A stretch of DNA of 60,482 nt from Candidatus Staskawiczbacteria bacterium (GCA_026395175.1 JAPLZF010000016.1:1-60482); one strand, 5' to 3'; counted from the first letter of the stretch, positions 5,364 through 35,449 are shown. Notes: a model not told the origin generated them from the sequence alone. A program made the numbers and translations.

Positions 5364-6527
5364 TTATATTTCTCCTTTTTTGATTCTTTGGCGAATTTCT
5401 TCCACAAATGTATTGAAATAAAAAAGATTATGAAAGGTTAAAAGCTTCATTCCTGTTATTTCATTTGCTTTTAAAAGATGGCACATATAATCTTTTTTGT
5501 AATTCAAGCAGACATTGCAGACGCAATTTTTATCCAACGGTTCGCGTTTTTTTAAAAATTTTGTCTGCTTCAAATTTAATTTTCCCTCACTGGTAAAGGC
5601 AATTCCGCGCCTGGCATAATGAGTTGGAACCGTGCAATCAAAAGTATCAACACCGGACTTTATTATTAACTCCATGTCTTCCAAATACCCCACTCCCAAA
5701 AGATGCCTTGGCTTTTTTTCCGGCAATTCATCAACAACCCATTCAACCATCTGGCTCATTGTTATTTTGTCGTTTCCAAATTCTCCGCCAATTCCAAATC
5801 CGTCAAAATCTAATCCACCAATAAATTTTGCGCTTTCTAATCTTAAATCTTTAAATCTTGAACCCTGCACAATTCCGTACAAGGCTTGTTTTGATTTTTT
5901 TGTTTTCAGGCAAATTTTTGCCCATTTATGAGTTTTTTCCAAAGATTTTTTAACATAATCTAAGTCTGCCAAGGGCGGTGTACACTCGTCAAAAGCAAAA
6001 ATTATGTCGGCTCCCAATTTTTCCTGAATTTTTATTGACTCTTTTGGCCCAATAAAAAGTTCGTCACCATTTATTGGCGAACGAAAAATTACGCCATCAT
6101 TATTTATTTTTATTTTCTGTGGCTGCATACCTACGACGACTTCTGAAAAGCGAGGTAATAAATTTTTGTCTTTAGTTTGATTACCGAGTGATAATTTGCT
6201 ACCTAATCCAAAATCTCTGCCAAAGCCCAGCGAAAAAACCTGATAACCTCCGGAGTCTGTCATTAAAGGCTTTTTCCAATTCATAAAATTATGAAGTTTG
6301 CCGGCTTTTTCTACAATTTTTTCGCCGGGTTTCAAATGCAAATGAAAAGTGTTGGAAATTAAAATCTGCGACTTTGTTTCTTGGACTTCTTTGCTTTCCA
6401 AAGTTTTTACAACAGCCTGTGTTGCAACCGGAACCAAACACGGAGTCTCAACAACTCCGTGCTCTGTTTCTAAAAATCCCAATCTTGCCCGACTTAATTT
6501 TGATTTTTTTAATATCTTGAAATTCAT
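5364..6527 (-). CDS. tgt: tRNA-guanine transglycosylase (queuine tRNA-ribosyltransferase)
   Basis: 387 aa. TDSGGYQVFSL and C-terminal zinc motif CxCxxC...H. Confidence 0.9.
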   Translation of the reverse strand: MNFKILKKSKLSRARLGFLETEHGVVETPCLVPVATQAVVKTLESKEVQETKSQILISNTFHLHLKPGEKIVEKAGKLHNFMNWKKPLMTDSGGYQVFSLGFGRDFGLGSKLSLGNQTKDKNLLPRFSEVVVGMQPQKIKINNDGVIFRSPINGDELFIGPKESIKIQEKLGADIIFAFDECTPPLADLDYVKKSLEKTHKWAKICLKTKKSKQALYGIVQGSRFKDLRLESAKFIGGLDFDGFGIGGEFGNDKITMSQMVEWVVDELPEKKPRHLLGVGYLEDMELIIKSGVDTFDCTVPTHYARRGIAFTSEGKLNLKQTKFLKKREPLDKNCVCNVCLNYKKDYMCHLLKANEITGMKLLTFHNLFYFNTFVEEIRQRIKKGEI

Positions 6528-6545: not shown

Positions 6546-6563
6546 GGTTATCACGTGATAACC
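6546..6563. promoter_or_regulatory. perfect 18-bp palindrome GGTTATCACGTGATAACC (copy 1)
   Basis: Lies 18 nt upstream of the tgt ATG and just downstream of the HTH gene. An identical copy is at 7238. Confidence 0.6.
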
Positions 6564-6589: not shown

Positions 6590-6775
6590 TCAGTGCCGGA
6601 CAATTAATAAATGCCTTACATCTGCTTTTTTGATAACAAAATTCGGACCAACCTTTATGGCTTTTATTGCTCCTCTATTAATTCTTTTCAGCACAGCCAC
6701 TCTGCTTATTTTCAAAATTTTAGCCAACTGACTGGTCGATAAAAACTCGCTTTTTCCTATAATAATTTCTTTCAT
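6590..6775 (-). CDS. excisionase/MerR-type helix-turn-helix DNA-binding protein
   Basis: 61 aa. LSTSQLAKILKISRVAVLKRINRGAIKAIKVGPNFVI is typical of the HTH_17 family. Confidence 0.75.
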   Translation of the reverse strand: MKEIIIGKSEFLSTSQLAKILKISRVAVLKRINRGAIKAIKVGPNFVIKKADVRHLLIVRH

Positions 6776-6781
6776 ACGCGG

Positions 6782-7213
6782 TCAAATTTTAAGGATATTT
6801 ATACTTTTAACGCTAATCCACGCAGACATCGCTCCAAAACCTTTTTTACTGATATTGAAACAATCAATTTTTTCGGGATTTTTTAGAAAAACCAGCAGAC
6901 AATAATTTTTGTCCTTAAACATTTCGTGATATTTGCCGATTTCATCTTTGCTTATGCCATCTTTCGCTCCATATTTATTAAGAATTTCCAAAACCCTGTT
7001 TGAAGTCAAGCCTGAAAACTGCAAAATATCAAAAACTTCAGCCTTTACGCTCACGGGTTCTCCTGAATTTTTGAAATAAACAATGTCGCCTTTTTGAATT
7101 TTGTCCCAAGGAGAATATTTATTTTTGTACCATCGAGATTCAATCACCTTTTCTCCACTCAAAATCTTTGGCAACAACCCCCAGGATTTTCTCATTATTG
7201 CTAAATGTTCCAT
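6782..7213 (-). CDS. ASCH (PUA-like) domain protein
   Basis: 143 aa. N-terminal LPKILSGEKVIESRWYKN ... GDIVYFK pattern of ASCH domains. Confidence 0.6.
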   Translation of the reverse strand: MEHLAIMRKSWGLLPKILSGEKVIESRWYKNKYSPWDKIQKGDIVYFKNSGEPVSVKAEVFDILQFSGLTSNRVLEILNKYGAKDGISKDEIGKYHEMFKDKNYCLLVFLKNPEKIDCFNISKKGFGAMSAWISVKSINILKI

Positions 7214-7237: not shown

Positions 7238-7255
7238 GGTTATCACGTGATAACC
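7238..7255. promoter_or_regulatory. perfect 18-bp palindrome GGTTATCACGTGATAACC (copy 2)
   Basis: Lies 25 nt upstream of the ASCH start codon. Confidence 0.6.
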
Positions 7256-7914: not shown

Positions 7915-8094
7915 ATGTTCGACAGAAACAACAACAGCGGAGGTTTTGTCAGAAGAGAACCGGTTAAAGGAAACTGGAAATGCTCCGAGTGCGGAGTAGA
8001 AATTACAGAGCTTCCTTTTGAACCAGCTCCAGACAGGCCAATCTATTGCAGAGAATGCTGGCAAAAGAAAAGACCTCCAAGATTCAGCAGATAA
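7915..8094 (+). CDS. small CxxC...CxxC zinc-ribbon protein (59 aa)
   Basis: Hand-translated: MFDRNNNSGGFVRREPVKGNWKCSECGVEITELPFEPAPDRPIYCRECWQKKRPPRFSR. Resembles the CxxC-x17-CxxC family common in CPR. Confidence 0.7.
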   Translation: MFDRNNNSGGFVRREPVKGNWKCSECGVEITELPFEPAPDRPIYCRECWQKKRPPRFSR

Positions 8095-11820: not shown

Positions 11821-12735
11821 TTATATTTCTAAATGTTTTTTTACGACAATTAAAGCAGAAATTACCCCGACTCCAATTCCAAAGCCTAACTGGATTAAAA
11901 CAAAAATCCACCAATTAGTCAAGAAAAATCCAAACAAGCTGAATCCCGGCAAAATTACTTCCACTTTAGATGACAGAATCAAGGCAAAAATTCCGGAAAG
12001 CAAAAAACAAATTACAAATGAAATAATTCCGTAAATTACTCCTTGAATTATGAAAGGTCCGCGGATAAACTGGTTTGATGCGCCCACTGTTTTCATGGTG
12101 TTTATTTCTTCTTTTGAATTTTCGATGGCAAGTTTTATGGTGTTGAAAACAACCAATATGGCAACAAGAATTAAAATAATTCCCAATATTATCCCAAAAA
12201 TAGTTATGTTGGAAGTGATAGAATAGATTTCTTCAATGGTGTCTTTTTTCTGAGAATAGTCCACTTTATCAATCAGCTTGCTGAAATCAGATGTCTGCAA
12301 AATATTTGCAACTTGGGCATATTGGGCAGGGTCACTGTTGGTTGTGATATTTAAAGACGGCAGAAATGGATTATTCCCTACCTCCTGCAAAGCCTGACCC
12401 AAAACCGCGTCATCTTTATGTTTTGCGCTGAAAGTTGCAAGAGCTTGGTCTTTTGAAACATACTCGACATTTTTTATGTTCGGCGACATTTTTATAATTT
12501 CATCTTTCACATTTAAAATATCCTGCTCTTGCGTGCCATCAACAAAATAAGCTGTAATATCAATTTTGTTTTGGATTTGGGCAGTTAAATAGCCGGCAAT
12601 TCCCTGAAAAAAGAAAAGCCCTGTCACAAGCATAATTGTAATTGTCAAAACAAAAATTGTTGCAATTGATATTCCTTTATTTCTGTTAAAATCATTAATT
12701 GCAAAACCTATAATTCTTTTTGTGTTATTTTTCAT
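11821..12735 (-). CDS. ftsX: cell division permease-like protein FtsX
   Basis: 304 aa. N-terminal TM, periplasmic domain, three C-terminal TM helices. Lies downstream of ftsE. Confidence 0.85.
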   Translation of the reverse strand: MKNNTKRIIGFAINDFNRNKGISIATIFVLTITIMLVTGLFFFQGIAGYLTAQIQNKIDITAYFVDGTQEQDILNVKDEIIKMSPNIKNVEYVSKDQALATFSAKHKDDAVLGQALQEVGNNPFLPSLNITTNSDPAQYAQVANILQTSDFSKLIDKVDYSQKKDTIEEIYSITSNITIFGIILGIILILVAILVVFNTIKLAIENSKEEINTMKTVGASNQFIRGPFIIQGVIYGIISFVICFLLSGIFALILSSKVEVILPGFSLFGFFLTNWWIFVLIQLGFGIGVGVISALIVVKKHLEI

Positions 12736-12744
12736 AATAAAAAT

Positions 12745-13425
12745 TTAAATAATGAATTTGCCCGCTTGTTCGTCGCGGATTATTTTTCCGTTTTCTAAAG
12801 TAACAACCCTTTTTCCCAGCTTATTTATTATTTCCCTGTCGTGCGTTGCCAAAATAATTGTTTTGCCTGCCTTATTTATTTTCTGCAGAAGAGAAATAAC
12901 TTCATAAGTATTATATGGGTCCAAATTTCCTGTAGGCTCGTCTGCAATAATAATTTCCGGGTTGTTTACCAAAGCCCGAGCAATTGCCAATCTTTGCTTC
13001 TCTCCTCCGGAAAGCTGGTCTGGAAAATTATTTATTTTTCCTCCAAGCCCGATAATTTCCAAAACTTTAGGAACTTCCCTGTCTATTTCCTCATTTTCTT
13101 TTCCCTCAACCTGCATAATATAAGCCACGTTTTCATAAACAGTTTTTTTGGGCAACAATTTATAATCCTGGTAAATGCATCCTATTTTTCTTCTAATTTC
13201 CTGAATTTTTGCTGGGTCGGCTGTATTCAAATTTTCTCCCTTAAAATAAATTTCTCCGGAGGTCGGCGCCTCAAGCCCCAAAATTAAGCGTGTTAAGGTT
13301 GTTTTGCCGACTCCTGATTTTCCAACAACAGAAACAAACTCTCCTTCTTTTATTTCAAAAGAGATGTCCTGCAAGACAACCGTGCTTTGTGAATAAATTT
13401 TTGTTACGTTATTAAATTTTATCAT
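12745..13425 (-). CDS. ftsE: cell division ATP-binding protein FtsE
   Basis: Walker [10 protein letters not shown], signature LSGGEKQR, Walker B IIIADEPT. Confidence 0.9.
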
Positions 13426-13426
13426 G

Positions 13427-13618
13427 CTACTTTCTTAACATTGATTTTACCCTTTTTATATCAATATCTTTCTTAAATATTATGAAATTACGACCCATCT
13501 TGCGTCCCCTTATTGAGCCATTACCTAATCTGTAAAAAACCGAAATTCTGCTGACGCCCAAAATTTTTGCTAGCTCGTTTGTAGTATAAAAATCTTTTTT
13601 TACCAATTCGTTTCCCAT
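13427..13618 (-). CDS. excisionase/MerR-type HTH DNA-binding protein
   Basis: 63 aa. FYTTNELAKILGVSRISVFYRLGNGSIRGRKMGRNFII. Paralog of 6590..6775. Its stop lies 1 nt before the ftsE ATG. Confidence 0.75.
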   Translation of the reverse strand: MGNELVKKDFYTTNELAKILGVSRISVFYRLGNGSIRGRKMGRNFIIFKKDIDIKRVKSMLRK

Positions 13619-13640
13619 AATTTTATCTCTTATGTTTTAT

Positions 13641-13656
13641 CTTAACATATGTTAAG
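13641..13656. promoter_or_regulatory. palindrome CTTAACATATGTTAAG (copy 1)
   Basis: Perfect 16-bp palindrome, 22 nt upstream of the HTH-ftsEX start. Confidence 0.6.
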
Positions 13657-13681
13657 ATGACCCGCAAACTACTTATTATAT

Positions 13682-15379
13682 TTAATATACTTCTTGTTGA
13701 TAACATTGTTCACAATAGACTATCTCTGCTCTGTCCGGCGCATAAGATGTTTCAATTTCTTTATTACATTTTGCACATTTTCGCAAAAATATTTTAATTG
13801 GATTTAACTGTTTTATGCGAGACCTGTCTCGGCAGAGAGGACATTTTCGTGGAATTGGAAGATTCATTCTGCGATAAAAGTCAAACTCCATTTTTATTAG
13901 CTTATAATTTTTGCCGCACTCGTCGCACTTTAATATGCCAAGAAGAATTTCATCTGCAACGTCTTTAATATCATCTGCAATGGAAACTGTTGCCGGCTCG
14001 TATTCCCGTTCGTCAGAATCTCTCCAAGCAAAACCTTTCTTAATAACCTCCTCTTTTGAAATTGGAAAAAATTCATAGGCGCTTGTTTCGTTATATGCCC
14101 ACGGAGAAAACTCGGCTGGGAAATATTCTCCATAACGATATTCATTTTTTCTTAAATCAACATAGGGCACTTCCATCATCTGCTTTTTAATTTGTCCTAC
14201 CAATTCCTGATATTCTTCTTTTGTGTATTGCTTGTTTAAAATGCAATATTCTGAATTTCTAAGTCCAACACATCCAAAAAGGTTTCCCGATCCATGACAC
14301 CCAAAACCATATTCTAAATCGTGCGCGCCATAATTCCAAAAACTAAATTTTATGTTGCGAACGGTAAGGCCAACCCATGTTGACTCGTATATTAATTCAG
14401 CGGTATCCCCAAATATTGTGTAGTCATAAGCATCTTTTGTCGGGCCTGACTTTAAGAGCTGGCTGTACCTGACGTCTTCTGAGTTTCCCGCCATATAAGA
14501 ATTGTGCACGTTCTTTGAATTAAAAATGTAATCTCCGACTACGTTTACATTTTTACGTCCGTGAAATTGTTTGCGAGGTTGCGTAAGAAAAAACTTTTCT
14601 GATTCTTCTTTAAAAGCGTTCTTGCTTTTTAACGACCCAAAATTTAATTCCTTAACTTTTTCTGCATATTCTTCTTTTGTGTATTGCTTGTTTAAAATGC
14701 AGTGCTGTTGATTTCGTAAATTAATACAGCCTATGCAATTTGAACAACCGACAAGGTCTCTTGAAAACCAGATGTCGTGCGAGTCTTCGCAGTCTTGTGA
14801 CCAAAATGCGCGATAACATTTATTTGTATTTACAGCCTGGTAGCAAAGCTCGCTGTCATTTGTGAAAGCAACGTCAAAACAATCCTTATCCCTGTTTATG
14901 GTGTTTGTATAAGCACAGTTTTCGCTATAATCACTCCTAAAACAAAGGTAGCAGTTCTTCAAGTCGGATGCCGCATTGCAATAGGGGCTATCAATCATAG
15001 TTGAATGCGCAGTATATAAAGTTGGATGAGGCACCTCGCGAAAAAGTTCAAGCCATTGTTCAAAAAACGATTTTTTGAAATCGTATTCTTTGCCAAATGA
15101 TTTTGGGTTGAATTCGTCAGACCACCATTTTTCCTGAGAATAAATTTTATGCAAAGTATCTGGAGGATAAAATGTTATCCCCTCTTCTCCAGAATCAAAT
15201 TTTCGGCGATATAATATTCTATTGCTCGTCCACACAAAACGCCGCATCATCCGGCAATCTGCACAAAATGTTGGAGAGGGCACTTTCATTTTTTCGTAAA
15301 ACGAAAAATCATCCGGCTCAATTACGAAATCCTTTTTACAATTTTGACATTGTTTTGTTTCTGTATCCATGGCAATCAT
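13682..15379 (-). CDS. large Cys-rich multi-zinc-ribbon protein, function unknown (paralog A)
   Basis: 565 aa. N-terminal CQNC-x24-CADC and C-terminal CDEC/CPLC/CAKC/CEQC ribbons. Internal duplicated module ending C-I-L-N-K-Q-Y-T-K-E-E-Y. Alternative ATG at 15370. Confidence 0.8.
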   Translation of the reverse strand: MIAMDTETKQCQNCKKDFVIEPDDFSFYEKMKVPSPTFCADCRMMRRFVWTSNRILYRRKFDSGEEGITFYPPDTLHKIYSQEKWWSDEFNPKSFGKEYDFKKSFFEQWLELFREVPHPTLYTAHSTMIDSPYCNAASDLKNCYLCFRSDYSENCAYTNTINRDKDCFDVAFTNDSELCYQAVNTNKCYRAFWSQDCEDSHDIWFSRDLVGCSNCIGCINLRNQQHCILNKQYTKEEYAEKVKELNFGSLKSKNAFKEESEKFFLTQPRKQFHGRKNVNVVGDYIFNSKNVHNSYMAGNSEDVRYSQLLKSGPTKDAYDYTIFGDTAELIYESTWVGLTVRNIKFSFWNYGAHDLEYGFGCHGSGNLFGCVGLRNSEYCILNKQYTKEEYQELVGQIKKQMMEVPYVDLRKNEYRYGEYFPAEFSPWAYNETSAYEFFPISKEEVIKKGFAWRDSDEREYEPATVSIADDIKDVADEILLGILKCDECGKNYKLIKMEFDFYRRMNLPIPRKCPLCRDRSRIKQLNPIKIFLRKCAKCNKEIETSYAPDRAEIVYCEQCYQQEVY

Positions 15380-15387
15380 ATTTTATC

Positions 15388-15407
15388 CCTGCCTACCGGC
15401 AGGCAGG
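15388..15407. repeat. GC-rich hairpin CCTGCC-TACC-GGCAGG(CAGG)
   Basis: Lies between the palindrome and the GATAAAAT-ATG sequence of paralog A. The two other palindrome copies lack it. Confidence 0.65.
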
Positions 15408-15421
15408 TTAACATATGTTAA
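15408..15421. promoter_or_regulatory. palindrome TTAACATATGTTAA (copy 2)
   Basis: 14-bp perfect core upstream of paralog A. Confidence 0.6.
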
Positions 15422-15449
15422 GATGACCCGCAAACTGCCTATTATATAT

Positions 15450-17243
15450 TTAGTATACTTCTTGTTGATAACACTTTTCGCAATAAATTATTTCTGGCCT
15501 ATCTGGCGCATAAGAAGTTTCAAATTCGTTTAAACATTTTCCTTCTCCATGTAAATGATTAGTAGTATTTTGATAATCACCATTCTCTGATTTTTGACCC
15601 GCACATTGGCATTTTCTGTGCCAAAGTTTTAGAGGTGGCCTTGGAGCAATCCTTTCGTAATGCCTGCAATTTGAACAAAGATGAGGCAATGGAATTTTAA
15701 GAGCTCTATAAAATGTTAACTCTTGAGGAGTAATTTTAAACGCGCCCGGACAAGTGTGCGCACAAAGCTTATTGTGCTCGCAAGCAATCACCTCTTTTAA
15801 AATGTCGTCTGAAACTTCGTCAATTATCTCAGGTAAATCTTTGGCCTGAATTGTTGGAGAGTATTTATTATCAGTTGACTCCCGCCAATCTAATCTTTTC
15901 TTTTCTGCCTGTTCTTGAGTAAGGGGCTGGAGTTCTTGAGCCACTGATTCATTGCGAGCAAAAGGAGAAATTTCTGCCGGAAAATATTCACCATATCTAT
16001 ATTCAATGCCGTTCTTGTCTATATAGGGCTTGTTATCCATATGCTCAATAACTTTTGGCACCAGGGCTTCGTATTCTTCTTTTGAATATTGCTTGTTAAA
16101 AATGCAATACTGCTTGTTGCGCATACTGACACAACCAAATAAATATGAACAATTATGGCAGTTATATGAATATTGTAAATGGTGGCAATTAAATATCATG
16201 CGAGAATACATTGCATCGTTGCCAGGGTAGACCGTTGAAATTTCCAAGCATTTAGAAGCGCCCAGGCCGGAATGATCACAATCATAAAAATCAGCAACAT
16301 TTGAATATACCAGCCACACATATTTTGCATCTTGCGCTCCGCCAAAAACATCGAAAGCTTGTTTGCAATTTTTGCAGTTCTCAAGGTTATTTCCAGTTGA
16401 ATTAATACAAGAAATCATGCGAGCAAATCTTCTGGGAAAATTTAAAGAAAATTTTTCAAAATCTTTTTTTATTTTTTCTCTATTTTGATAAGAATCAAAA
16501 CGATATTCCTTTATATTTTCTTCATATTCAGTTTTTGTGTACTGCTGGTTAAAAATGCAATAAGATTTATTGCGCAAGTTTACACAACCAAAACAATTTA
16601 AACAATTTCTGCAATTAAAAAGAAAAGCGCCGTCCATGCATCCTTCGCAGTAGCGTGAATAAAACAAGCGCGAACAAGAAATGCTGTCTGAACATTCATA
16701 ACAACCCTCACTTTTTGAAACCCAATAACAATCGGCAAGATTATGATTATTAAAAATAAAAGCACTATAGATAGAATCTTCATTAAAATCTCCTCCCACC
16801 ACCATATAGCAATCTTTATTTCCTTCAGTTATGTTGCAGTAATCGCTTCTTACAGGATTGATATTGAAAAGTCCTATATCTGGCACTTTCCTCCACAATT
16901 CTTTGAGTTGTTCGAAAAATGATTTTGAATAATCAATGTCTTGCCCAAAAGTAGCAGCATCCCAGGTGTCGCCCCACCAGCTGGCATGGTCATACACAAC
17001 CTGGTCACTTTCCGATGAAAATACAGATAAAATCATCTCTCCTTCTTTTCCAGGAGCATTATTTTTGCGCCTATAAAGTGATCTTTCATTACGAAATGTC
17101 ATGCGGCGGATCAATCTGCACTCGGGGCAAAATGTTGGAGCAGGAACCTTCATTTTTTCGTAAAACGCAAAATCATCGGGCTCGATTACGAAATCCTTTT
17201 TGCAATTTTGACATGTTTTTGTTTCTGTATTCATAACACTCAT
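15450..17243 (-). CDS. large Cys-rich multi-zinc-ribbon protein, function unknown (paralog B)
   Basis: 597 aa. Same architecture and motifs as 13682..15379 (MNTETKTCQNCKKDFVIEPDDFAFYEKMKVPAPTFCPECR ... YCIFNKQYSKEEY ... CEKCYQQEVY). Confidence 0.8.
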   Translation of the reverse strand: MSVMNTETKTCQNCKKDFVIEPDDFAFYEKMKVPAPTFCPECRLIRRMTFRNERSLYRRKNNAPGKEGEMILSVFSSESDQVVYDHASWWGDTWDAATFGQDIDYSKSFFEQLKELWRKVPDIGLFNINPVRSDYCNITEGNKDCYMVVGGDFNEDSIYSAFIFNNHNLADCYWVSKSEGCYECSDSISCSRLFYSRYCEGCMDGAFLFNCRNCLNCFGCVNLRNKSYCIFNQQYTKTEYEENIKEYRFDSYQNREKIKKDFEKFSLNFPRRFARMISCINSTGNNLENCKNCKQAFDVFGGAQDAKYVWLVYSNVADFYDCDHSGLGASKCLEISTVYPGNDAMYSRMIFNCHHLQYSYNCHNCSYLFGCVSMRNKQYCIFNKQYSKEEYEALVPKVIEHMDNKPYIDKNGIEYRYGEYFPAEISPFARNESVAQELQPLTQEQAEKKRLDWRESTDNKYSPTIQAKDLPEIIDEVSDDILKEVIACEHNKLCAHTCPGAFKITPQELTFYRALKIPLPHLCSNCRHYERIAPRPPLKLWHRKCQCAGQKSENGDYQNTTNHLHGEGKCLNEFETSYAPDRPEIIYCEKCYQQEVY

Positions 17244-17250
17244 ACTTTAT

Positions 17251-17266
17251 CTTAACATATGTTAAG
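17251..17266. promoter_or_regulatory. palindrome CTTAACATATGTTAAG (copy 3)
   Basis: Overlaps the prfB stop codon and lies 7 nt upstream of the paralog B ATG at 17243. Confidence 0.6.
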
Positions 17267-35137: not shown

Positions 35138-35449
35138 ATGGACTCAACATCGCTTATAGCAATAATTATTGCTATCATTGTTATCTATCTTTTTATAAAA
35201 TTTGTTGTAAGCCCTGTTCTTAGGATTATATTTGGTGTTATAATTTTTTTGATTCTGATTTATCTTTTGCAACGATTTTTTGGGCTTAATCTTGACGAAA
35301 TATTTGCCCATTTTGGAATATCTTTAAATTCAAGCAAATGGGGTCCAAGTCTTAATTGGCTTTTAAGTCCGGTAAATTATTGCACAGACCAAATAATATC
35401 ATTTTTTAATTTTATCTGGAAAAATGTTCCTAAATCTTCAAAATTTTAA
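35138..35449 (+). CDS. hypothetical membrane protein
   Basis: 103 aa, two N-terminal TM helices. Confidence 0.45.
   Translation: MDSTSLIAIIIAIIVIYLFIKFVVSPVLRIIFGVIIFLILIYLLQRFFGLNLDEIFAHFGISLNSSKWGPSLNWLLSPVNYCTDQIISFFNFIWKNVPKSSKF

Follow-up and report, generated by a model that had tools for sequence, protein, structure and literature searches.

The putative regulator and its described relatives

DNA-binding domains of about 60 residues with a winged-helix fold are known from the N-domain of RacA (PDB 5i44), from BldC (6ama, 6amk) and from CbpM. RacA binds as a dimer to a 14-bp palindrome, and the sites of BldC are head-to-tail direct repeats. A similar structure is found in excisionases and recombination directionality factors of the HTH_17 family (Pukovnik Xis, 4j2n; RdfS, 8dgl; TIGR01764), and the DNA-binding fold is also that of full-length MerR regulators such as NmlR (5d8c) and SoxR (2zhg). 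The promoters of MerR regulators typically have spacers of 19-20 nt between the -35 and -10 boxes. Here, we consider a 63-residue helix-turn-helix (HTH) protein of this type, HTH1, encoded in a 60,482-nt stretch of DNA (hereafter the window, meaning this whole stretch) from an uncultured, ultra-small, Staskawiczbacteria-like bacterium of the Patescibacteria. A palindrome lies in front of HTH1, which is followed by ftsE and ftsX, and in front of two genes for Cys-rich zinc-ribbon proteins, paralogs A and B. From the comparison of related loci, HTH1 very probably binds this 20-bp palindrome. The explanation that we hold to be probable is that the palindrome would be the operator of an HTH1 dimer, in a local, autoregulated and repressed regulon including A and B, both of which belong to a large zinc-ribbon family of Paceibacteria.

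HTH1 resembles RacA, BldC and CbpM in size and in fold order. In its AlphaFold2 model (predicted local distance difference test, pLDDT, 81.7), it adopts a MerR/Xis-type winged helix with the order beta-alpha-alpha-beta-beta-alpha. The best Foldseek matches are RacA-DNA, NmlR-DNA, Pukovnik Xis, BldC-DNA and RdfS (probabilities 0.9-1.0, template-modelling scores 0.54-0.62), whereas at the sequence level HTH1 matches no PDB chain. Several features set it apart from these relatives. Unlike those of BldC, its sites are perfect inverted repeats. Operators of the HTH1 type flank the regulator's own gene on both sides, which distinguishes them from those of RacA, BldC and CbpM, and the HTH1 family is apparently restricted to Patescibacteria metagenomes. 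JGI and NCBI label the homologs of HTH1 'excisionase family DNA-binding protein'. In contrast to excisionases, the protein is found in a housekeeping backbone (prfB, ftsEX) rather than in a mobile-element context, and its palindromic sites are at promoters. Its neighbours are prfB, two genes of the Cys-rich family, ftsE, ftsX and a tRNA gene, and no integrase gene stands beside either of the two HTH genes of the window. With respect to full-length MerR regulators, the long C-terminal coiled coil and the effector region are missing, since the 63-residue chain contains only one short helix (54-62) past the wing.

Palindromic sites in the window

The minus strand carries every gene of the locus, from an FtsB/DivIC-like gene to a tRNA gene past ftsX, in the transcription order FtsB/DivIC-like gene, two tRNAs, prfB, paralog B, paralog A, HTH1, ftsE, ftsX, tRNA. 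The features around the palindromes are the following.

18291..17262, minus strand: prfB (RF2; Pfam RF2), the upstream backbone gene
17249..17268, unstranded: putative operator copy 3, a perfect 20-bp palindrome ATCTTAACATATGTTAAGAT lying over the prfB stop codon (TAA, 17264..17262)
17243..15450, minus strand: paralog B, 597 aa with 37 Cys, member of the Paceibacteria Cys-rich zinc-ribbon family
15405..15424, unstranded: putative operator copy 2, with a 14-bp core TTAACATATGTTAA at 15408-15421 and the outer right arm broken by an insertion
15407..15388, minus strand: GC-rich hairpin insertion of 20 nt, CCTGCCTGCCGGTAGGCAGG, upstream of paralog A, where it separates the TTAA of the module from GATAAAATATG
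15379..13682, minus strand: paralog A, 565 aa with 27 Cys, member of the same family
13639..13658, unstranded: putative operator copy 1, a perfect palindrome of 20 bp, 20 nt ahead of the ATG of HTH1
13618..13427, minus strand: HTH1, 63 aa, HTH_17 / MerR-Xis-like winged helix, proposed to bind the operators as a dimer
13425..12745, minus strand: ftsE (ABC ATPase; Pfam ABC_tran), starting 1 nt past the HTH1 stop
12735..11821, minus strand: ftsX (Pfam FtsX and FtsX_ECD)

The identity of FtsEX is established by the Pfam matches to ABC_tran (3.1e-38), FtsX (6.9e-12) and FtsX_ECD (1.4e-11). ORF calls and Pfam thus confirm the reading frames of a first-pass annotation made from the sequence (565 aa, 597 aa, a 63-aa HTH protein and ftsEX), although at 565 and 597 aa the two paralogs are not the giant proteins that it announced.

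Exact copies of the 14-mer TTAACATATGTTAA are found three times in the window, at 13642, 15408 and 17252. The first-pass annotation had described a palindrome present three times in front of three start codons; the copies are indeed there, but two of the coordinates given were off by one. When up to two mismatches are allowed over the 60,482 nt, a single additional match appears (59533, 2 mismatches), which is at the level of chance, shuffled sequences giving a mean of 0.79 hits. Copies 1 and 3 extend to the perfect 20-mer ATCTTAACATATGTTAAGAT. Between the 14-mer and the ATG there are 8 nt in the case of paralog B, 28 nt in that of paralog A and 23 nt in that of HTH1. On the minus strand, copy 3 reads from its right arm TGTTAAGAT into AAAGT and then into the ATG of paralog B; the earlier reading of TAAGAT followed after 5 nt by this ATG was correct. 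When the three modules are aligned, copy 2 proves to be one more instance of this module, interrupted by the hairpin CCTGCCTGCCGGTAGGCAGG. The folding energy of the region of this insertion at the RNA level is -17.7 kcal/mol. The insertion shifts the ATG of paralog A 20 nt away, and without it paralog A, like B, would have its ATG 5 nt past TAAGAT. The module ATCTTAACATATGTTAAGATAAArTATG, ATG included, recurs before HTH genes (loci L088 and L092) and before a methyltransferase gene (L007). Counted from the ATG of this module, A and B both have three extra N-terminal residues, and their first CxxC is at residue 11, as compared with residue 8 in 120 of about 220 homologs.

The near-identity of about 70 nt downstream of A and B is real, as judged from the alignment. 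It covers the non-coding promoter-operator module and conserved C-terminal codons only, and most of it is accounted for by the conserved last codons (CYQQEVY*) of the two paralogs, within which the proposed -35 boxes are located. A conserved stretch AGTTTGCGGGTCAT is also observed between the TATAAT box and the operator, at 13659-13672 and 15425-15438, with a similar sequence GTTTGTAGGTCA in L094; the operator model does not explain it. Two further long perfect palindromes occur in the window, AAAAGCAGTAATTTAAATTACTGCTTTT (28 nt, 2207-2234) and ATAGCAATAATTATTGCTAT (20 nt, 35156-35175), and their sequences are unrelated to the operators.

The idea of a general genomic repeat was rejected, because in 1.4 Mb of loci containing the Cys-rich family the palindrome occurs only in L007, L019 and L023. 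L007, which encodes the closest ortholog of B (78%), contains TTAACATATGTTAA twice and the symmetric variant GGTTATCACGTGATAACC. In L019 (Staskawiczbacteria RIFOXYD1_FULL_32_13), AGGTTGTCATATGACAACCT precedes a homolog of HTH1, after which come a near-copy and then a gene of the family.

Covariation of the recognition helix and the half-site

A scan of metagenomes with the HTH profile gave 80 loci, among which are 41 distinct small HTH genes (51-71 aa). The palindrome flanking these genes has the form (TCA)GGTTnnCnnnnGnnAACC(TGA) and a length of 18-24 bp. It lies 4-29 nt before the ATG (mode 9) in 29 of the 41 genes and at -6 to +41 nt relative to the stop codon in 26 of them. Both positions are occupied in 21 genes, and the arm is then identical upstream and downstream in every case (21/21).

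The half-site varies together with the recognition helix, as followed over 43 distinct HTH proteins. Thus, SRISVFYRLG is associated with TCTTAAC (7/7), SRISVFKRV with GGTTAAC (10/11), SK[IV]SVLKRIW with GGTTACC, SRV[SA]VLKR with GGTTATC, and S[RK]QSVLKR with GGTTGTC (9/9). In a permutation test, the observed association was reached in none of 10,000 shuffles. A change of type needs a concerted change in both half-sites of both copies, as a common dimeric reader would enforce. The sites are real and non-random, they are confined to gene fronts beside HTH genes, and they co-vary with the recognition helix. An inverted repeat at the regulator's own promoter, together with a site that tracks the recognition helix among homologs, would make HTH1 a candidate for the class of autoregulated palindrome-binding repressors. 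The prediction of the first-pass annotation that the 63-residue protein would be the binder of the palindrome is strongly backed, both by the protein-DNA covariation and by the constancy of the arm within loci.

The window itself contains a second regulator/site pair, consisting of HTH2 and two copies of GGTTATCACGTGATAACC.

7238..7255, unstranded: second putative operator type GGTTATCACGTGATAACC, copy one, 24 nt upstream of the ASCH-like gene that precedes HTH2
7213..6782, minus strand: ASCH-like gene, 143 aa, preceding HTH2
6775..6590, minus strand: HTH2, 61 aa, 46% identical to its paralog HTH1, from which it differs in the recognition helix (SRVAVLKRINRG)
6546..6563, unstranded: second putative operator type GGTTATCACGTGATAACC, copy two, with the HTH2 stop 26 nt before it and the tgt ATG 18 nt behind it
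6527..5364, minus strand: tgt, behind the second GGTTATCACGTGATAACC copy

The ASCH-like gene gives a match to Phage_integr_3 (E 0.005, below the cut-off), which is too weak to be credible.

That the palindrome is the operator of the HTH protein is well supported by these comparisons. The pair would represent a form, specific to the Candidate Phyla Radiation (CPR), of a type of regulator already familiar, and its specificity code can be read. A literature search returned no paper describing either this pair or the Cys-rich family.

Predicted promoters and proposed mode of control

The position of the palindrome relative to promoter elements is clearest in HTH_17 relatives of 241 aa. There, a perfect TTGACA is found 4-5 nt upstream of the palindrome, in the layout TTGACA-N17/18-TAAnnT with TGn in front, so that the spacer is taken up by the palindrome, the right arm of which forms an extended -10. 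These relatives resemble MerR promoters in holding the palindrome between the -35 and -10 boxes, but their spacers are 17-18 nt long, and the operators of the window are located downstream of the -10 box or form it. In loci with small HTH genes, a TATAAT-like box is usually present 2-17 nt upstream of the palindrome. Two such promoters can be proposed in the window from their match to the consensus.

15441..15468, minus strand: sigma-70-like promoter TCAACA-16-TATAAT where paralog B ends, preceding copy 2 and paralog A, its sequence being conserved with the flank of copy 1
13675..13703, minus strand: sigma-70-like promoter TTATCA-17-TATAAT, with the -35 within the last codons of paralog A; operator copy 1 begins 17 nt past the -10

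No promoter is predicted upstream of copy 3, the right arm of which, TGTTAAGAT, ends 5 nt from the ATG of paralog B. A role of the right arm as extended -10 is not claimed for all operator types: it fits TGnTAAGAT and TGnTAACCT, but not the centres CGACAACC or GGTTAACC.

The first-pass annotation had also proposed that the mRNA of paralog B is leaderless. Among 904 genes (window and loci L001-L087), 112 have a TATAAT-like hexamer, in 34 cases exactly TATAAT, that ends precisely 6 nt upstream of the ATG, as compared with 10-30 genes at other spacings. This peak suggests that leaderless mRNAs would be widespread in Paceibacteria. Shine-Dalgarno-like sequences are few in the upstream regions of the window. 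A leaderless mRNA for paralog B is plausible in view of how common the signature is, but the fit is imperfect, as discussed below.

The following mechanism may be envisaged. HTH1, which consists of a DNA-binding domain only, would bind the palindrome as a dimer, and the three operators would define a small local regulon composed of paralog B, paralog A and the HTH-ftsE-ftsX operon. Because an operator stands before that operon, HTH1 would be autoregulated. In the case of A and HTH1, the operator would be located about 10-30 nt downstream of the start expected from the TATAAT promoter. In the case of B, the right arm TGTTAAGAT would itself be the extended -10, 5 nt before the ATG, and a leaderless or near-leaderless mRNA would result. 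The bound dimer would then hinder RNA polymerase, and repression would be lifted under some condition. HTH2 and GGTTATCACGTGATAACC would act likewise, 6-7 kb away, before the ASCH-like gene-HTH2 operon and before tgt. The palindromes thus appear to overlap or abut promoters of the sigma-70 or leaderless type. Since the operators are placed where a bound dimer would hinder RNA polymerase, repression is the most likely direction of regulation. Physical binding, dimer stoichiometry, repression and transcription start points are all inferred from sequence.

Several observations weigh against this scheme. Under the definition used, 7 of the 41 small HTH genes have no site. Shared ancestry partly confounds the covariation, as kin loci inherit both protein and sites, and it inflates the statistics. 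Consensus sigma-70 matches in the region are no more numerous than in shuffled sequences (24 versus 23.9). HTH1 itself scores 21.4 bits against Pfam HTH_17 (PF12728), under the gathering cut-off of 27, and is likewise sub-threshold for TIGR01764 (23.0 bits, cut-off 28.8); its 22 aligned homologs all match PF12728 at E<=0.01, the best at 1.1e-7. Concerning the start of paralog B, the spacer is 5 nt and not the 6 nt that dominates the leaderless peak. Furthermore, the true start of A and B could be a second ATG, 9 nt downstream. Finally, by analogy with MerR proteins, activation may be an alternative mode of control.

Reach of the proposed regulon and alternative explanations

The association of the HTH gene with ftsEX is not a rule of the family. 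An HTH gene stands directly before ftsE in 8 loci only (L088, L089, L090, L093-L096, L099), all with HTH orthologs of 77% identity or more, and the order Cys-rich gene-HTH-ftsE occurs in three of them (L088, L089, L094). A family-wide linkage was therefore rejected, the link being confined to one narrow lineage. The proposal that FtsEX and the Cys-rich proteins belong to one regulon would accordingly hold for these close relatives, but elsewhere operators of this kind stand before unrelated housekeeping genes. In at least 12 loci, a gene of the Cys-rich family comes immediately after a more distant small HTH gene; these HTH-adjacent genes are not orthologs of A or B but other paralogs, 39-48% identical. 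When all sites are considered, the gene behind the operator is an HTH gene in 43 cases, a gene of the Cys-rich family in 16 and another gene in 54. Among the latter are tgt in the window and the methyltransferase gene of L007, which itself has Pfam matches, as well as genes that we take from their N-terminal sequences to encode YraN-like proteins (about 7), GatB, LepA and LOG-family proteins. The system would thus be a local regulator with targets differing between genomes, the Cys-rich family appearing clearly over-represented among them.

An operator over the prfB stop codon also occurs in L092 and L099, with a different gene behind it. This arrangement points to a backbone prfB-[operator-X]n-operator-HTH-ftsEX in which X is variable. 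It may then be imagined that the palindromes are boundaries or recombination sites of gene cassettes, the Xis-like HTH protein being a directionality or architectural factor, and that B, A and other genes preceded by a palindrome entered the space between prfB and HTH-ftsEX through site-specific or palindrome-mediated recombination. Such a model is compatible with an operator role. In close relatives, the backbone is conserved while X corresponds to B and A (window), to a 132-aa gene (L092), to an 84-aa gene (L099) or to other paralogs of the Cys-rich family (L088, L089, L094); each inserted gene brings a promoter-operator-ATG module of its own, the housekeeping genes on either side of the HTH unit are unrelated from one genome to another, and the HTH fold resembles that of excisionases. 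However, neither in the window nor in the loci inspected does an integrase, a transposase or another recombinase stand beside these units. Excisionases normally act on direct repeats and not on perfect palindromes, and ordinary rearrangement with duplication of a regulatory module explains the variable content equally well. We consider a cassette origin rather unlikely, though it is the alternative to which we give the most weight.

Another possibility would be that the palindromes act as RNA hairpins, in termination, processing or stabilisation between genes, and that the adjacency of HTH genes is incidental. The location of many palindromes just after stop codons would agree with such a role, 8-bp hairpins are possible (-7 to -9 kcal/mol, z -2.4 to -4.8), and the variants keep their symmetry through changes on both arms. 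Yet the stems are AT-rich and weak, and no copy is followed by a U-tract; the palindromes do not have the GC-rich hairpin and U-tract of an intrinsic terminator, and the terminator scan calls none. They match no Rfam family. Moreover, the sites occur almost only beside HTH genes, and the HTH-less arrays of the Cys-rich family that were checked (L001-L003, L005, L008) contain none. The model does not predict covariation of the inner bases with residues of a protein helix, and in the 241-aa class the palindrome, being inside the -35/-10 spacer, is not transcribed. A role at the RNA level is thus improbable. Last, that the three copies are functionless remnants of a local intergenic duplication, as the likeness downstream of A and B might suggest, can hardly be sustained, because the 18-20-mer is kept before other genes elsewhere (L007, L088, L089, L092-L094, L099) while its surroundings diverge and because the third copy has only the palindrome plus GATAAA-ATG in common. 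An operator read by the HTH protein remains the preferred explanation.

The Cys-rich paralogs

Over the whole of their length, paralogs A and B share 40% identity. The N-terminal motifs CQNC-x24-CxxC and FYEKMKVPxPTFC are present as described in the first-pass annotation, and the internal duplication is borne out by the alignment of residues 105-250 of A with residues 255-400 (hhalign probability 99.8%, E 4.7e-28). Homology also links the N-terminal ribbon to the penultimate one (hhalign probability 98.7%, E 1.9e-16). From N- to C-terminus, paralog A comprises a treble-clef zinc ribbon, a duplicated Cys-rich unit of about 145 aa, a linker domain, a zinc ribbon and a CxxC-x17-CxxC ribbon. Three CxxC...CxxC sets are invariant in 72 homologs (C11/14/39/42, C485/488/513/516 and C535/538/556/559), and so is C215 in the first core repeat. 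The members of the family are cytoplasmic.

The AlphaFold2 model of paralog A has a pLDDT of 83.5 and a predicted template-modelling score of 0.86, the two Cys-rich repeats being at 60-75. With this model, a Foldseek search of the PDB is empty at E<1 and one of BFVD gives short zinc-ribbon matches only, and a profile search of PDB sequences retrieves only LIM-type double zinc fingers, over the last 55 residues or so. A known fold was consequently rejected for the family on the basis of these searches. In Pfam, the terminal ribbons of A match zf_Tbcl and zf_Tbcl_2 weakly (16 bits with a cut-off of 24, and 23 bits with a cut-off of 27), B has no match at all, and neither protein reaches the gathering score of these two families. 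The terminal ribbons of A are thus weakly alike to zf_Tbcl (PF13451), zf_Tbcl_2 (PF23477) and TIGR04272 (CxxC-x17-CxxC), but those models span fewer than 90 of the about 570 residues of the family. The duplicated Cys-rich core and the 400-480 domain have no match in Pfam, NCBIfam, the PDB or BFVD, in keeping with the earlier remark that no characterised family was recognised in A and B. A stand-alone 59-aa CxxC-x17-CxxC protein is encoded at 7915-8094 (plus strand) of the window; it matches zf_Tbcl_2 (PF23477) with E 3.7e-13 and is homologous to the last ribbon of the family.

The earlier suggestion of a recent duplication or gene conversion of the paralogs proved wrong. Separate sets of orthologs of A and of B, at about 55-86% identity, exist in many lineages, as compared with 40% between the two proteins, so that a recent tandem duplication was rejected. 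The presence of these separate orthologs across Paceibacteria indicates that the split between A and B is ancient.

Distribution of the family and its ATPase neighbours

At 90% clustering, at least 7,274 and at least 7,985 clusters of homologs are found for A and B, respectively. None of them has a name other than 'hypothetical', and the source is in every case a Paceibacteria-type member of the Patescibacteria (Staskawicz-, Nomura-, Lipton-, Jorgensen-, Giovannoni- and Sungii-bacteria). When a profile was searched against 1.84 billion representatives, at least 2,238 clusters (50% identity) were retrieved at E<=1e-30. Among the top 150 of 5227 representative matches, lengths range from 444 to 612 aa, almost all proteins being full-length (545-612 aa); all 150 match the same profile and none contains a domain fusion. 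Single-linkage clustering of the family into orthogroups is unstable between 48% and 55% identity.

The 1.4 Mb of family loci contain 255 genes of the family. Their usual setting is not beside ftsEX but in arrays of 2-9 genes flanked by genes for VirD4/TraG-like ATPases, with up to 9 complete ORFs per 20-kb locus and, on one contig, at least 12 genes in about 22 kb. The neighbour that dominates in these loci encodes an ATPase anchored in the membrane, with TrwB_AAD_bind, DUF87/HerA, T4SS-DNA_transf and TraG-D_C domains. In these loci, 48 of 53 genes resembling those of type IV coupling proteins (T4CPs) are located at most two genes from a gene of the family. Thirteen same-strand arrays are bracketed in the order T4CP-(x)-family genes-(x)-T4CP (in L007, L008, L016, L028, L030, L037, L047, L062, L066, L069, L077 and others), often with CutA1 and sometimes with DUF5674, and the bracketing ATPases fall into two size classes, of about 490 aa and about 690 aa. 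The 60-kb window contains no T4CP-like gene, and its two Cys-rich genes stand apart from such arrays, between prfB and HTH-ftsEX.

A survey published in 2025 counted 5,713 VirD4-like T4CPs in 2,918 Patescibacteria genomes, only 148 of which are near virB4 (PMC12102498); it makes no mention of a Cys-rich or zinc-ribbon neighbour family. The best guess, given these neighbourhoods, is that the members of the Cys-rich family would be zinc-dependent binding or scaffold proteins working with orphan VirD4/TraG-like ATPases.

Other regulatory genes are found in or near the arrays. A 242-aa HTH_17/MerR-type protein and a DUF4325 protein of about 100 aa are encoded together inside family arrays (L007 882-1905; L019 8943-9952; L062); upstream of this pair are direct repeats GTATAG(A/G)TTTA and no palindrome. 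A PaaX_M-like gene of 172 aa is divergent from dnaK, with a palindrome ATTTTGCGGTCGCAAAAT in between (L084 20794; L028, L033, L039, L040, L047), and this pair is often beside genes of the family.

Other features of the window

The most 5' gene of the locus in transcription order is the following.

19070..18657, minus strand: FtsB/DivIC-like gene

The prfB gene has a classical programmed +1 frameshift site, CTT TGA C, at 18228, which indicates that the organism reads UGA as a stop codon. Elsewhere in the window, a LOOT RNA (Rfam RF03000, 84 bits) is found at 59178-59296 on the minus strand, between a 362-aa gene (58085..59173) and a 199-aa gene.

Concluding remarks

Almost nothing is known of gene regulation in the CPR, and the present locus gives a compact regulator-operator system. 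With at least five helix/half-site pairs, it offers a natural specificity series that may be used for understanding CPR transcription and as a source of orthogonal parts. In one lineage, ftsEX, a module of cell division and cell-wall remodelling, would be tied to the control by the HTH protein.

In genomes smaller than 1 Mb, the Cys-rich family occupies from several genes to more than 20 kb. Its sequences are 55-60% identical between candidate phyla, and the searches gave no protein of related structure. The 'orphan' VirD4-like ATPases noted in Patescibacteria, which number in the thousands, have this family as their main neighbour, and this neighbourhood brings the function of both families within the reach of experiment. 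The family is very large and structurally novel, and its organisation in arrays beside these ATPases is the most interesting lead. It is tempting to imagine, as a tentative model for which we would claim less than an even chance, that the family and its bracketing ATPases form an undescribed system of the Paceibacteria as a whole. In such a model, up to nine or more conserved zinc-ribbon paralogs per array, of a fold absent from the PDB, would be clients, adaptors or cargo of these coupling-protein-type ATPases, and the HTH-palindrome modules would be local repressors and portable promoter-operator-ATG cassettes, wiring paralogs and ftsEX into the same control. If this were true, the system might serve the export of macromolecules to the host cell of these episymbionts, or their import from it.

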